Assembly: GCA_964442455.1 (NCBI GenBank)
Contig: CAYTZB010000003.1
Coordinates: 19,842 to 83,841, forward strand
Source: an uncultured Gammaproteobacteria bacterium
Lineage (GTDB): Bacteria; Patescibacteriota; Microgenomatia; UBA8517; JACQJR01
Direction of reading: 5' to 3'
Length of the DNA stretch: 64,000 bases
The notes beneath the pieces were generated by a model. It saw only the letters and a list, made by a program, of their open reading frames with translations. It did not search any database and was not told the DNA's origin. The position numbers were made by a program, and so were the translations under genes. Below are positions 41,580-48,720 of this stretch, in pieces. Every line of letters begins with the position of its first letter. Positions within the stretch are counted from its first letter, which is position 1.

Positions 41580-41961
41580 ATACAATTGACATTTTTATAA
41601 CAGCATTCAAGAAAACCGCGACCCGTAAGGTCGCGGATGAATTGAACGCTGATATGTCATCCTCCTTTAGAGGTGAAAACCCCGTTCGTAAGAACGGGGA
41701 GGATGTCATAAATAGCATACAACCCTCCAGCAAACGCAGCTTGAGCCGTTCCGCCAGCTGGCGGATGAAAAGCGAAAGCTAAGTTGCGGAGGGTGGTTTA
41801 ATAAGCACCTTGACAATCAGAAAGTGATCGGAAGTCAATTTTTTGTACTTTCGATGTAACTCAGTACAAAAATACTGAGCGAAGTCGAATGTATTTTTGA
41901 GGGTTTGATCCTGGCCCAGGATGAACGCTAGCGGCGTGCCTTAGGCATGCAAGTAGAACGG

Positions 41962-42160
41962 TCCTTGTGCTTTGCACAAGGAAATTCGAAGCACGAATTT
42001 TAAAGCACGAAATTCGAATATCGAAGCACGAAACAAATCATAAATTCAAATTTTCAAATGTTTCAAACATTAGAATTTTGAACATTTAGTATTGTTTCGA
42101 ATTTCGTATTTCTGATTTCGAATTTAATTTTCTTTCGGATTTTCTCGCGCAGAGCGCGAG
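41962..42160 (+). repeat. intervening-sequence-like palindromic element inserted in 16S helix 6 (V1)
   Basis: Lies between GCAAGTAGAACGG and GGATAGTTGCAAACGGGTGAGTAACGCG. Bounded by hairpins CCTTGTGC-TTTG-CACAAGG and CTCGCGC-AGAG-CGCGAG. Core is the CGAAGCACGAA...TTCGAATTTCG element. Confidence 0.6.
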
Positions 42161-42941
42161 GATAGTTGCAAACGGGTGAGTAACGCGTAGGAATCTACCC
42201 TTTGGTGGGGTATAGTCCGCCGAAAGGCGGGGTAATTCCCCATAGTCTTGCAAGAGTAAAGCGCGTAACTGCGCACCAAAGGAGGAGCCTGCGTCCTATC
42301 AGCTAGTTGGTAGGGTAATGGCCTACCAAGGCAGTGACGGGTAGCTGGATTGAGAGATCGGTCAGCCACAAGGGCACTGAGACACGGGCCCTACACCTAC
42401 GGGTGGCAGCAACTGGGAATCGTCGGCAATGGGGGAAACCCTGACCGCGCGACGCCGCGTGAGGGATGACGGCCTTCGGGTTGTAAACCTCTAATATCCG
42501 CCGAAAGGCGAGATAAACTAGCGCCCGCAAACCACGTGCCAGCAGCTGCGGTGATACGTGGGGCGCAAGCGTTATCCGGATTTACTGGGCGTAAAGCGTT
42601 CGTAGGCGTCTCGGTAAGTCGCACTTTAAATACTCGGGCTTAACTCGAGAAATGGGTGCGATACTGTCGGGATTGAGTGTGCGAGGGGGTACTGGAACTG
42701 CCGGTGTAGGGGTGAAATCCGTTGATATCGGCAGGAACACCAAGGGCGAAGGCGAGTACCTGGCGCATAACTGACGTTGAGGGACAAAAGCTAGGGGAGC
42801 GAACCGGATTAGAGACCCGGGTAGTCCTAGCCGTAAACGATGCTCGCTAGCTGCCTCACTCTTTCTGTGCATGAGATTATCTTACTAATTATTTTGTGCT
42901 TAGAAAGTGTGGGGTGGCGTAAGCTAACGCGTTAAGCGAGT

Positions 42942-42990
<49 letters not shown>

Positions 42991-43107
42991 ACCTGCACAA
43001 CCAGTGGAGCATGTGGTTTAATTCGAGACAAACCGAAGGACCTTACCTGGGTTTGACATGCTACCGTTCACCCCGATGGAAACATCGGGGGATCAGCAAT
43101 GATGGTA

Positions 43108-43151
<44 letters not shown>

Positions 43152-43538
43152 CGGCTTCAGTGCCGTAACGAGCGCAACCCCTACCTGCTGTTAGATTATT
43201 CAGCGGGGACGGTCTCCCTTCGGGGAGAAGGAAGGAGGGGATGATGTCAAGTCAGCATGGCCCTTATACCCAGGGCAACACACATGCTACAATGACCGCG
43301 ACAATGGGTTGCCAAGCCGTAAGGTGGAGCTAATCCCATCAAACGTGGTCTCAGTGGGGATTGTGGGCTGCAACTCGCCCACATGAACGCGGAATTGGTA
43401 GTAATCGCGGGTCAGCTATACCGCGGTGAATACGTTATCAGGTCTTGTACACACCGCCCGTCAAGCCAGCAAAGTTGGGGGCACCTGAAGGTCCCTTTTT
43501 GGGAACGAGGGTGAATCCAGCGATGAGGACTAAGTCGT

Positions 43539-44282
43539 AGACGCAAACTGCGTTTGTTGCGACCTTCTGGAGTAATCCAGTTGAAAAATTCAACTGTATC
43601 GGTGAACTCCTACTTGATATTCGCGTCATCTTCGGATACGCTGAATTAAAAAGGAGAATACCGAGGGAAGTCTCCCATTAGATACGAAGTTATCTAACGG
43701 GATGACCCCGTAGAGACTACACGTTGACTCCTCAAGAATGACTAAAGCATATTTGCTTGGCGCTTTACATGACGGTACCGTACGGAGACTAACTTATCGC
43801 ATCGTCCAGAAAGATCAAGAGTACATTGAATTTCTTGTAAAAGGGATTCAGAATCTTGGTCAAAAAGTCTGGATGTATAAAGAAGGGAAGAGCAGACAAC
43901 TTTATGTTGCCGAGTTCTCAAGAAACTTCTTAAAAGATTTTGTTTTGCAAACTTTGCAGGACAAAGTTGATTACATCCGAGGTTATTTCGATGCAGAAGG
44001 TGGAGTCTCGAGAAATCCAAAAGTTCGATACTACATTTATTTCGCTCAGAAAAATCTAAAAGATTTAGAGCAGGTAAAAAGATTTTTAGAAGAACTAGGG
44101 ATAGAATGCGGTATCTTACATAATCCAAGCAAAGGAGTAGACCCCAATTATTGGCGATTTTTCGTTAGAGCTTGTTCTTACGGAAGATTTGCACACTTAA
44201 TTGGAAGTTGGCATCCTGTTAAAAGTCAATTTTTGAGGATGAAGATATAGTCCATGCCACTAGTAATAGTTGGAGTAACATG
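43539..44282 (+). mobile_element. intron in 16S rRNA at E. coli position ~1506 (putative group I), encoding a homing endonuclease
   Basis: Removing 43539-44282 restores the universal AAGTCGT|AACAAGGTA. The 5' exon ends in U and the insertion ends in G. Confidence 0.7.
43738..44250 (+). CDS. LAGLIDADG-family homing endonuclease (intron-encoded)
   Basis: Two LAGLIDADG-like motifs, LLGALHDGTV and IRGYFDAEGGV. 170 aa. Located entirely inside the 16S insertion. Confidence 0.8.
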   Translation: MTKAYLLGALHDGTVRRLTYRIVQKDQEYIEFLVKGIQNLGQKVWMYKEGKSRQLYVAEFSRNFLKDFVLQTLQDKVDYIRGYFDAEGGVSRNPKVRYYIYFAQKNLKDLEQVKRFLEELGIECGILHNPSKGVDPNYWRFFVRACSYGRFAHLIGSWHPVKSQFLRMKI

Positions 44283-44595
44283 AACAAGGTATCCGTACTG
44301 GAAGGTGCGGATGGATCACCTCCTTTCTAGGAGAAATAGGGTTCACGGCCCTATCCGCCAATTGGCGGAGTGATATTCACCCGAGAGTTTACCTTTACTC
44401 TCGTTTCCTCCCAAAGCCCATTTTGGGCATTGTGGCGGACCAGCCTAAATACTTTTGTTTTTGGCTGGAAACAACAAAAGGATTCTTCCGGTCACTTTCT
44501 GAAGGTCAAGGAAAAAATCCCTAGCAAACGCTGGGGATTTTTTGCCTCCGGCCCTTGAGGGCCTCTGGCCCGGAGGGTATAATTAATGTGCCTTT

Positions 44596-44805
44596 GGGCT
44601 GCTGGTTCAGCGGTAGAACGCTTTCCTGATGACAAACAAAGTTTGACATATCAAATTTTGATACATAACATGGGTGCGTGGCTCAGTGGTAGAGCGTCGT
44701 CCTGATAAGACGAAGGTCCTTGGTTCGATCCCAAGCGCACCCACACAGCAAAGTACAAAATTTGTTATAAGAAAGAGGTGCTAGGTTCGACTCCTAGGCA
44801 GCCCA
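44596..44805 (+). tRNA. split tRNA with GAU anticodon (tRNA-Ile-like) carrying a 136-nt insertion in the anticodon loop
   Basis: The 5' half 44596-44632 and 3' half 44770-44805 pair perfectly: acceptor GGGCTGC/GCAGCCC, D-stem GTTC/GAAC, anticodon stem CTTTC/GAAAG, T-arm CTAGG-TTCGACT-CCTAG. The anticodon loop CTGATGA is interrupted at the canonical 37/38 site. Confidence 0.6.
44672..44743 (+). tRNA. tRNA-Ile(GAT), nested inside the insertion of the outer tRNA
   Basis: Manual cloverleaf. Acceptor GGGTGCG/CGCACCC. Anticodon stem TCGTC/GACGA. Loop CTGATAA. T-loop TTCGATC. Confidence 0.85.
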
Positions 44806-46009: not shown

Positions 46010-46203
46010 CTTGTGCATGGCACAAGAAATTCGAAGCACGAATTTTAAAGCACGAAATTCGAATATCGAAGCACGAAACAAATCATAAATTCAAATTTTC
46101 AAATGTTTCAAACATTAGAATTTTGAACATTTAGTATTGTTTCGAATTTCGTATTTCTGATTTCGAATTTAATTTTCTTTCGAGTTTCTCGCGCTGTGCG
46201 CGA
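46010..46203 (+). repeat. intervening-sequence-like palindromic element in 23S helix 25 region (E. coli ~540)
   Basis: Lies between ...GAACAAGCCGGTAGAG and TGATACCGTGCCTATTGAAGAATGAGCCGGCGAGT. Hairpins CTTGTGC-ATGG-CACAAG and CTCGCGC-TGTG-CGCGAG. The core is nearly identical to the 16S copy. Confidence 0.6.
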
Positions 46204-46747: not shown

Positions 46748-46845
46748 TAAAGAAAGCGTAACAGCTCACTGGAAGAGGCCCGCATGGGCTGGGAGTATGG
46801 CGCCGAAAATGATCGAGGATTAAGCCAAGCACCGAAGACAGAGGG

Positions 46846-47013
46846 CCTTGTCATTTGGACAGGGAAATTCGAAGCACGAATATCGAAGCTCGAAACAATA
46901 TCAAAATTCAAAAATTTAAATTTCAAAATTATTTTGAATTTAGTATTTTAAGAATTGTAATTTGTTTCGGATTTCGGATTTAGAATTTCGGATTTTCTCG
47001 CCCAGAGGGCGAG
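46846..47013 (+). repeat. intervening-sequence-like palindromic element in 23S helix 45 region (E. coli ~1170)
   Basis: Lies just before the conserved TTGGTAGGGGAGCGTTCCGTA. Hairpins CCTTGTC-ATTTG-GACAGG and CTCGCCC-AGAG-GGCGAG flank a GAAATTCGAAGCACGAA ... TTTCGGATTTCGGATTT core. Confidence 0.6.
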
Positions 47014-48369
47014 GTTGGTAGGGGAGCGTTCCGTATGCGGTGAAGTTTCACCGTAAGGTGAGGTGGAGCGTACGGAAGTGAGAATGCCGGCATGAGTAGC
47101 GTACGAGTCCGGTGAGAATCCGGACCGCCGAATACCCAAGGTTTCCGTCGCAACGTTCGTCGACGACGGGTTAGTCGGTCCTAAGGAGAGCCCGCCAACT
47201 GGCGGGGTATCTGATGGGAAAGCCGTTAATAATCGGCTACTCGTTTTGTATCGTTATTTAGCCAGGGGTTGACGAGTGTGGAGGTGTTGGGCCCTATACA
47301 GATTGGGGTGTAAGCTGCAAGGCAGTTCCGGCAGGGAAATCCGCCGAAGCGTTTTAACCGAGCAGCAATGCAGACCCCCGTAAGGGGGAATTCAACTACC
47401 TTTAGACTCCGAGAAAAGACTCGTGGTGAGATACAGAACGGACCGTACCGCAAACCGACACTGGTGGGTTGGCAGAGTATGCTAAGGCGAGTGGGAGAAA
47501 GAGGCTCAAGGAACTCGGCAAACAAGCTGGACGTAAGTTCGCAAGATGTCCTCCCCACCCTTTCTGGGTATCAGTATTCCGATATGGGTATTGGTATTTA
47601 GAAAGGGTGGGGTGCAACAAATGACTGTCTCTCGACTGTTTAGCAAAAACACAGGTCCCTGCAAACCCGAAAGGGAAGGTATAGGGGCTGACGCCTGCCC
47701 AGTGCCGGTAAGTCAAGGGGAGGTGTCCGTTGTCCGCCTTTGGCGGACTATGGAGCACTGAACTGAAGCTCCGGTAAACGGCAGCAGTAACTATAACTGT
47801 TCTACGGTAGCGAAGTTCCTTGTCGTGTAAGTTACGACCCGCACGAAAGGCGTCACGAGGAGACAACTGTCTTGAGCCTTTACCCAGCGAAATTGCGATG
47901 GCTGTGAAGACGCGGCCTACTTGCACCAGGACAAATAGACCCCGTGGAGCTTTACTGCAACCTGGCATTGCTACCATTTGTTTTGATTGTTGAGCGTAGG
48001 AGGGAGTCCTTTCCGCAAGGTCAGGACGTCAATGAAACACCTCTCTTCAAAATACGTGGGGCTTATCTGAGTCCGCTGGAAACGCGGATAGAAACAGTGC
48101 TTGGTGGGCAGTTTTACTGGGGCGGTATCCTGCTAAAGTGTAACGCAGGAGTGCAAAGGTCGGCTTAGCACGGATGGAAATCGTGCTGGACGGGTAAGAC
48201 CTTAAGCCGGCTTGACTGCAAGGTCGACGGACCGAGCAGGTACGAAAGTAGGTTCTAGTGATCCTCGCGTTCGTCGTGGGACGGCGCGGGCTTAACGGAT
48301 AAAAGCTACCCCGGGGATAACAGAGTAGTCGGTCCCGAGAGTCCATATCGACGGGCCGGTTCGCTACCT

Positions 48370-48720
48370 CAACAATGACATCGGGGTCCTTCGATGGTAA
48401 CATCGGAGTGCTGTTAGTCAAACTCTACCAGTAGTTTGGCAAAATATCGACTCATAACGGTGAATCCTGTATATTGACATTCGTGTATCTTTCGGGATAA
48501 CGTTAGTTAATAATGGTAACACCGTGGGAAGTTTATCGGATGTTCAACAACAATTAATTTTAGGTTGTGTCTTGGCGGTATAAAATTCCGATATAACCCC
48601 GTATCGACTTTTTCTTTTTAAGAAAAGATGGAGAGTTTTCTCCATAATACGTCGACGCCCATTTTGTTGTGATGGGTGAAGGTATAGTCAGGCTACCACG
48701 AAAGTGGATAGGTTTATTTG
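48370..48720 (+). mobile_element. ORF-less intron-like insertion in 23S rRNA at E. coli ~2499/2500 (candidate group I intron)
   Basis: Removing 48370-48720 restores GCTACCT|CGATGTCGGCTC (E. coli GGCACCTCGATGTCGGCTC). The exon ends in U and the insertion ends in G. GAAGGTATAGTCAGG resembles the group I S element AAGATATAGTCC. Confidence 0.45.

Follow-up and report, generated by a model that had tools for sequence, protein, structure and literature searches.

The window analysed here, a stretch of 64,000 nucleotides (nt) from contig CAYTZB010000003.1 of an uncultured bacterium of the candidate phyla radiation (CPR; Patescibacteriota), carries a complete ribosomal RNA (rRNA) operon with the genes for 16S, tRNA-Ile(GAU), tRNA-Ala(UGC), 23S and 5S. 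The 16S rRNA gene (Rfam RF00177, 1295 bits) holds a 744-nt insertion, exactly 43539-44282, with an open reading frame (ORF) for a protein of 170 amino acids (aa). When 43539-44282 is removed, AAGTCGT is joined to AACAAGGTA; the wider junction reads ...GGACTAAGTCGT followed by AACAAGGTATCCGTA..., and the sequence after the junction, read to its end, is AACAAGGTATCCGTACTGGAAGGTGCGGATGGATCACCTCCTTT, the normal 3' end of a 16S gene. The restored 16S sequence is universal and the junctions are exact. We consider it highly probable (about 0.9) that the insertion, located directly after U1498 (E. coli numbering), is a mobile group I intron. The interrupted gene is composed of:

41893..43538, + strand: 16S rRNA 5' exon, ending at U1498 in E. 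coli numbering (Rfam RF00177, 1295 bits; alignment to E. coli rrsH)
43539..44282, + strand: predicted group I intron, 744 nt (deletion restores 16S; junctions common to 19 other loci; covariation)
44283..44326, + strand: 16S rRNA 3' exon, from A1499 to the 3' end, with helix 45 and the anti-Shine-Dalgarno CCUCC

The base before the insertion, at the end of the 5' exon, is U43538 and the last base of the insertion is G44282, in agreement with the initial annotation, which had placed the insertion at these coordinates and pointed out an exon-final U and an insertion-final G as in group I introns. The G+C content of the insertion is 39%, compared with 52% in the exons. The position 1506 assigned at that stage has to be corrected, however. 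Alignment to E. coli rrsH and a position count place AAGTCGTAACAAGGTA at 1492-1507, and therefore the break falls after U1498; S1506 is a separate site, known from eukaryotic nuclear rDNA. As A43539 is identical to A44283, the boundary could formally slide by one base, and it was fixed at 43539-44282 by the group I rule, which requires U ahead of the site and G as the last base, and by the P1 and P10 pairings presented below. The insertion site is the strand joining the top of helix 44 to helix 45, and the decoding-centre residues A1492/A1493 adjoin it in the functional 3' minor domain. The Rfam 16S alignment stops wrongly at 43595, because the interruption of the gene makes the model fit its 3' end to intron sequence.

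A genome scan with the encoded protein gave 21 loci. The same junction, with AAGTCGT before the insertion and AACAAGGT after it, was picked up by a motif scan in 19 of them; a twentieth 16S locus (L019) has AAGTCGA at the 5' junction and hence no U.G pair, and a single locus (L014) lies outside a 16S gene. For the structural analysis, the window intron and 20 introns at the same site in other metagenome-assembled genomes (MAGs) were aligned after the ORF interiors had been cut out. The host 16S bodies are only ~70-82% identical to the window 16S. Since the hosts are very divergent, conservation of the structure reflects selection on the ribozyme and not recent common descent.

A hand-drawn structure was scored on this alignment, with 500 shuffles and registers in which the 3' partners were slid by 1-3 columns as controls. 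Standard pairs made up 85.7% of the cells, as opposed to 74.5% in the shuffles, none of which reached the observed value (0/500), and 36-48% in the slid registers. Moreover, 30 pairs were changed on both sides (22.7 in the shuffles and 15-20 in the slid registers), and the covariation score was 0.349, with 0.138 in the shuffles and at most 0.132 in the slid registers. RNAalifold, which was run blind on the same alignment and is unable to draw the P7 pseudoknot, recovered P1, P2, P3, P4, P5, P6 and P9. The comparative evidence thus supports a group I core P3-P9 with the P3/P7 pseudoknot (P3 99% paired, P7 100%). The initial annotation had made its interpretation depend on such a core, which was found and covaries across the 21 introns; it had also recommended looking for a P1 pairing with an internal guide sequence, and GUCGU/GCGAC was found, U.G wobble included. 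Judged from sequence comparison, the insertion is a group I intron, with the following parts:

43534-43538 with 43559-43563, + strand: P1, exon GUCGU with guide GCGAC, 5/5 pairs; U43538 in the U.G wobble at the predicted 5' splice site
43539-43555, + strand: P1 extension hairpin AGACGCA-AAC-UGCGUUU, variable, missing in some relatives
43554-43563, + strand: internal guide sequence, UUGUU (43554-43558) for P10 and GCGAC (43559-43563) for P1
43554-43558 with 44283-44287, + strand: P10, UUGUU with AACAA, directly 5' of the P1 strand
43565-43582, + strand: P2 hairpin with L2 GUAA tetraloop (43572-43575); 7/7 pairs compensatory, 97% of cells paired, found independently by RNAalifold
43583-43589, + strand: J2/3, A-rich
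43590-43594 with 43723-43727, + strand: P3, UCAAC with GUUGA, closing the P3/P7 pseudoknot; 4/5 pairs compensatory, 99% of cells paired
43599-43664, + strand: P4-P5 domain; 4/10 pairs compensatory, 92% of cells paired, RNAalifold in agreement
43599-43604 with 43659-43664, + strand: P4, UCGGUG with UACCGA
43605-43606 and 43657-43658, + strand: J4/5 and J5/4, AA and AA
43607-43611 with 43652-43656, + strand: P5, CUCCU with AGGAG, with a putative distal extension bearing a UUCG-capped hairpin
43665-43667 with about 43707-43709, + strand: P6, GGG with CCC, enclosing variable P6a/P6b; 100% paired, G-C to G.U changes only
43710-43712, + strand: J6/7, GUA
43713-43718 with 44249-44253, + strand: P7, guanosine-binding helix, G-[A]-GACU (bulged A) with AGUCC; 100% of cells paired
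43729-43735 with 44233-44239, + strand: P8, UCCUCAA with UUGAGGA; 3 pairs compensatory, 81% of cells paired
43738-44250, + strand: putative LAGLIDADG homing endonuclease gene, 513 nt, 170 aa, in the P8 loop
44240-44248, + strand: J8/7, UGAAGAUAU
44257-44273, + strand: P9 hairpin with L9 GUAA tetraloop (44263-44266) and a bulged U; 4/6 pairs compensatory, 89% paired, RNAalifold in agreement
44282, + strand: terminal guanosine (omega-G) at the predicted 3' splice site; 21/21 introns end in G

All 21 introns have an unchanged guide sequence GCGAC, and 20 have the U.G at the 5' splice site. P10 has 6/6 pairs in the window intron and an uninterrupted run of three or more pairs in 18 of the 21 introns; covariation of this helix is impossible because the exon is invariant. 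Among the introns that have the P1 extension hairpin, compensatory changes affect two of the three basal pairs and one of the four apical ones. P7 shows one compensatory change, G-C to U-A, in L019 and L020. Its 5' strand is part of the 'R' element GUAGAGACUACA; the 3' strand of P8, J8/7 and the 3' strand of P7 together (44233-44253) form the 'S' element AAGAUAUAGUCC, and both elements are nearly invariant in the 21 introns. The R and S consensus sequences of group I introns used here are those of the literature. The register of P6 is ambiguous by one base, GGG facing CCC(C), which covariation cannot decide.

Some pairings considered on the way to this structure were rejected. A P2.1 hairpin of the early hand model, GUUGAA-AAA-UUCAAC, was dropped: the hairpin is absent from relatives, and UCAAC shows covariation with GUUGA, its partner in P3. 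An extension of P3 by UGU/ACA was dropped as well, given the uncompensated G/A variation in that column. RNAalifold proposed GUAG/CUAC instead of P7 and CAUCC/GGAUG instead of P8, both of which are invariant, whereas the drawn P8 has compensatory changes; these alternatives can be attributed to the barring of pseudoknots and to coding conservation (WHP codons). As for variation among relatives, L019 and L020 have an extra 75-82 nt between P7 and the 3' strand of P3, where IA introns have P7.1/P7.2, and L007 and L018 have additional hairpins after P9.

The ORF and the ribozyme core overlap. The start codon lies 2 nt past the 5' strand of P8, and the final codons UUG AGG AUG AAG AUA UAG (LRMKI and stop, 44233-44250) double as the 3' strand of P8, J8/7 and the start of P7. 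The near-invariant FLRMKI end of the protein family can be explained by this arrangement, since the same bases form the ribozyme core. Where these codons change synonymously (UUG/UUA, AGG/CGG), the non-coding 5' strand of P8 changes to match, which is good evidence for P8 as drawn. According to a review (PMC3984707), ORFs are mostly found in peripheral loops, and overlap with core sequences demands controlled expression. Among the database proteins there are also some of 197 aa (P0053, P0078, P0094 and others), in which the called gene runs past the intron through the 3' exon to ...GGDGSPPF. This end is GGATCACCTCCTTT translated, and the 197-aa family members are gene-calling artefacts on rRNA.

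The 170-aa protein contains both LLGALHDGTV and IRGYFDAEGGV, the two LAGLIDADG motifs noted in the initial annotation, and a confident two-domain model of it resembles I-DmoI. Pfam recognizes PF14528 (LAGLIDADG_3; E 1e-16, 61.4 bits against a cut-off of 22.5) in residues 79-156 only. There are more than 1000 homologues, mostly of 170 aa; where the sources give a name, it is Microgenomates or Patescibacteria. Residue conservation was counted in 38 aligned homologues with 69-100% identity: D12 is invariant (38/38), and at position 87, 34 homologues have E, three have D and one has K. D12 and E87, the predicted catalytic residues, are acidic and stand at the end of one LAGLIDADG helix each. The AlphaFold2 model (mean predicted local distance difference test, pLDDT, 90.4; predicted template modelling score, pTM, 0.86) has two alpha-beta-beta-alpha-beta-beta-alpha domains, both of which begin with a helix of the LAGLIDADG type (H3-12 in the first, H73-86 in the second). 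A Foldseek comparison with the PDB ranked I-DmoI first (E 8e-10, template modelling (TM) score 0.70, full length), with I-Tsp061I (E 3.6e-7, TM 0.72) and then the WhiA N-terminal domain also matched; in all of these, one chain carries two LAGLIDADG domains. Profile alignment places IDYIRGYFDAEGGV opposite IAFIKGLYVAEGD of I-DmoI, and E87 falls at the 'AEGD' motif of that enzyme. A phmmer search against PDB sequences returned insignificant matches only, with a formyltransferase first, and I-DmoI was insignificant in a profile search too (E ~0.04-0.1), so that fold comparison alone was decisive.

Based on the model, the enzyme would most likely be a compact monomer and not a homodimer. I-DmoI, from a 23S rRNA intron of Desulfurococcus mobilis, and I-Tsp061I, from a 16S rRNA intron of Thermoproteus, have the same compact two-domain single-chain fold, but their sequence identity to the window enzyme is only 19-24% and sequence searches are not significant. 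With its 170 aa, the window enzyme is shorter than I-DmoI (chains of 188-200 aa), and its host element is a bacterial group I intron, unlike those of the two archaeal enzymes, which are archaeal protein-spliced introns. We lean towards the view that the CPR 16S-1498 LAGLIDADG_3 proteins, at 170 aa, are among the smallest monomeric two-domain endonucleases, that they are structurally closest to enzymes of archaeal rRNA introns, and that their LRMKI end is fixed by the ribozyme core (P8, J8/7, P7). At the locus outside a 16S gene (L014; CAYOVA010000018.1, 254-751), a 69%-identical endonuclease homologue has no 16S or ribozyme flanks and is without the LRMKI end; this copy may be free-standing or relocated.

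According to the structure presented above, the intron would be transcribed as part of the pre-16S rRNA. P1 would form between the guide GCGAC and GUCGU at the end of the exon, placing the U.G wobble at the splice site, and the P3-P9 core would fold with its P3/P7 pseudoknot, the guanosine pocket of P7 beside the bulged A and the J8/7 sequence AAGAUAUAGUCC. An external guanosine would attack after U43538; UUGUU would then pair with AACAA of the 3' exon to form P10, the terminal G44282 would enter the pocket, and the exons would be ligated as AAGUCGU-AACAAGG. The endonuclease would be expected to cut intron-less 16S genes across this very conserved site (GAGGACTAAGTCGTAACAAGGTATCCGT), and the intron would then be copied into the cut gene by repair (homing). 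Comparison of the proteins with their hosts showed that the more similar endonucleases are not those of the hosts with the more similar 16S. Over a long alignment L017 is the best host 16S match (77%, highest score), yet its protein is only 59% identical, while the proteins of L002-L004 are 81-82% identical to the window endonuclease. This discordance between sequences fits lateral spread, and horizontal transfer through homing was likewise concluded in the CPR survey (PMC11270868).

In that survey, Tsurumaki et al. (2024; PMC11270868) examined 380 CPR 16S genes and found insertions in 48% of them; thus, the rarity of bacterial 16S introns put forward by the initial annotation is true of bacteria overall and not of CPR. 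With the Rfam model, 35% of the CPR 16S insertions were classed as group I; LAGLIDADG_3 (PF14528) was found solely in 16S insertions, 35 inside group I introns, and LAGLIDADG_3 and LAGLIDADG_2 proteins have the sites 16IS5 and 16IS10 in common (PMC11270868). The authors name an insertion 'at position 1498' and describe a group-I-like sequence with LAGLIDADG_2/_3 genes in CPR (PMC11270868); going by this text, 16IS10 is probably position 1498. Removal of such insertions from transcripts is relayed in the survey as well (PMC11270868). I-ShaI, the only CPR enzyme assayed, belongs to a 23S intron and is different from the window endonuclease (PMC11270868). The CPR 1498 class and the window intron have the same gene, position, host clade and Pfam family (PF14528), and the locus is a member of this already catalogued class. 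The class was called group I by Rfam cmscan, with E <= 1e-4 quoted for I-ShaI; if this cut-off applied generally, the window intron would pass (E 2.2e-5). Tsurumaki et al. give no helix-by-helix structure for the 1498 site, as opposed to the present analysis. They report that CPR LAGLIDADG proteins are mostly single-domain and that those of LAGLIDADG_3 have an N-terminal 'non-domain region' (PMC11270868), which is modelled here as a second, cryptic LAGLIDADG domain. The bacterial 16S group I introns of a 2012 PNAS paper, some with LAGLIDADG genes, are described in the survey as the only experimentally characterised bacterial 16S introns (PMC11270868); they come from a different host phylum.

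The compact core with tetraloops in L2 and L9 recalls IC3 introns such as those of Azoarcus tRNA-Ile and cyanobacterial tRNA-Leu. In both, the core is small (~250 nt in the window intron when the ORF is left aside), P2 is single and capped by a tetraloop, and L9 is a tetraloop too, while P2.1 and a three-helix extension of the P5abc type are lacking. The R and P4 stretches of the window intron presumably resemble those of the Azoarcus intron. Unlike IC3 introns, the window intron has an ORF in L8, and its J8/7 sequence AAGAUAUAGUCC is typical of many subgroups. The insertion of 75-82 nt between P7 and P3 in L019 and L020 also differs from IC3 and resembles IA introns.

Several observations weigh against a mobile group I intron. 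No Intron_gpI match at the gathering threshold was found by Rfam in the whole window. The Rfam group I scan suggested by the initial annotation stayed below the gathering score and gave partial RF00028 matches at permissive settings, the best of them with 29.4 bits (E 2.2e-5) against the 50 bits of the gathering threshold. This match does align the 3' strand of P8, J8/7 (GAAGAUAUAGUCC) and P9, and so covers the S element together with P8 and P9; a second partial match at permissive settings (15.3 bits) lies in the 5' half, and scanning only that half (43530-43745) with Rfam brought no useful result. The low RF00028 score can be ascribed to the 513-nt ORF inside the core, which splits the model. 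In addition, the distal P5 extension is poorly aligned by MAFFT and only 37% paired. No Shine-Dalgarno-like sequence was seen upstream of the ORF start, by eye only, and this start abuts the P8 strand, which bears on how and when the ORF is translated. In the protein, the first motif LLGALHDG is one residue short of the canonical spacing and the N-terminal domain is missed by Pfam, and for these reasons activity of that half-site can only be presumed. Finally, we infer splicing, endonuclease activity and homing at this locus, unlike the junctions, the ribozyme structure, the fold class and the spread, which were observed.

The unusual first motif and the N-terminal domain missed by Pfam would also suit a real intron in which the LAGLIDADG protein is a needed RNA maturase or a dead nuclease, and which is inherited vertically instead of by homing. 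Organelle group I introns have LAGLIDADG maturases (Belfort 2003, as cited in PMC11270868), and the overlap of the ORF with the ribozyme core would couple the functions of RNA and protein. We regard this explanation as unlikely. The predicted catalytic positions are kept (D12 in 38/38; E87 in 34/38, with D in 3 and K in 1), the ribozyme has a complete core and stabilising GUAA tetraloops in L2 and L9, and vertical inheritance disagrees both with the discordance between endonuclease and host 16S (L017 as opposed to L002-L004) and with the homing inferred in the CPR survey (PMC11270868). The lack of an Rfam intron call at the curated threshold is also what would be expected of an intervening sequence, excised by RNase III or another host nuclease and left unligated, which would give a fragmented 16S, or else kept in the mature rRNA. 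Bacterial rRNA has known examples of intervening sequences left unligated, and the same operon has three hairpin-type insertions resembling them. Nevertheless, the core, the guide sequence, the U.G, the terminal G and P10 have been kept by selection across 21 introns, for which a simple excised hairpin gives no reason; there is no obvious long stem between the ends of the insertion (by eye), comparative folding leaves these ends unpaired, and the site lies in the functional 3' minor domain beside A1492/A1493. An intervening sequence is therefore very improbable. I-DmoI and I-Tsp061I, which match the fold best, come from archaeal rRNA introns, and this could suggest an archaeal-type bulge-helix-bulge intron, but the junctions, GUCGU followed by AGAC and ACAUG followed by AACAA, form no such motif (by eye) and the group I core is backed by covariation. 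We give next to no credence to this possibility or to an assembly chimera, the latter ruled out by the same insertion in 20 independent assemblies from different studies. The interpretation of the initial annotation, a group I intron with a two-motif LAGLIDADG homing endonuclease gene in a CPR-type 16S, is supported.

The same operon contains other insertions. A 162-nt AT-rich element is present in the 16S gene (41981-42142, at the tip of helix 6, E. coli ~70-100) and, with 99% identity, in the 23S gene (46026-46187), where it lies after position 543, at the site of helix 25 intervening sequences; another copy, shorter and diverged, occupies 46843-47019 (23S ~1159-1181, the helix 45 site). With GC-rich base stems, the 162-nt element would fold into one long hairpin (-77.5 kcal/mol, z = -8.9), and it looks like a mobile intervening sequence of the RNase III type common to 16S and 23S. 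After E. coli 23S ~2500 there is a 351-nt ORF-less insertion (48370-48720), in which Rfam gives a sub-threshold group I match (32.2 bits, E 1.6e-6, 48405-48710); this is probably a second, ORF-less group I intron. The 16S gene has another insertion of 39 nt (42851-42889, after E. coli ~829) and several deletions typical of CPR (E. coli 465-498, 1128-1141 and 1436-1444). Between the 16S gene and the complete tRNA-Ile gene (44672-44744), and 37 nt upstream of the latter, GGGCUGCUGGUUCAGCGGUAGAACGCUUUCCUGAUGA at ~44598-44634 resembles by eye the 5' half of tRNA-Ile(GAU); ARAGORN calls only complete tRNA genes there. The spacer from tRNA-Ile to tRNA-Ala is unusually long (~530 nt). As for the relatives, the MAGs of L002, L004, L005, L009, L011, L013, L014 and L021 are titled 'uncultured Gammaproteobacteria bacterium' and that of L018 'uncultured Pseudomonadales bacterium'; on MAGs with CPR-type introns, such titles are probably placeholders or errors.

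The class to which this intron belongs had earlier been catalogued only in bulk, and what is added here is a helix-level model tested by covariation, the overlap of ORF and core, and the two-domain reading of the endonuclease; no new question is opened. There are practical consequences. Primer 1492R, the complement of AAGTCGTAACAAGGTARCCGTA (E. coli 1492-1513), has its universal binding site split by the intron, and amplification of near-full-length 16S with 1492R by the polymerase chain reaction should therefore fail on an intron-bearing gene. Automated rRNA callers truncate the gene, as in the Rfam end at 43595, and gene callers yield spurious read-through proteins. If the two-domain reading is true, the CPR enzymes would not be single-domain homodimers with an uncharacterised N-terminal extension, as domain databases suggest, and would be natural scaffolds of very compact size whose recognition site, the 1492R primer region, ranks among the most conserved in the DNA of living things; exchange of rRNA-intron endonucleases from archaea to CPR would be hinted at as well. 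The locus represents a clean and well-resolved case of a probably mobile unit of ribozyme plus endonuclease beside the ribosomal decoding centre.

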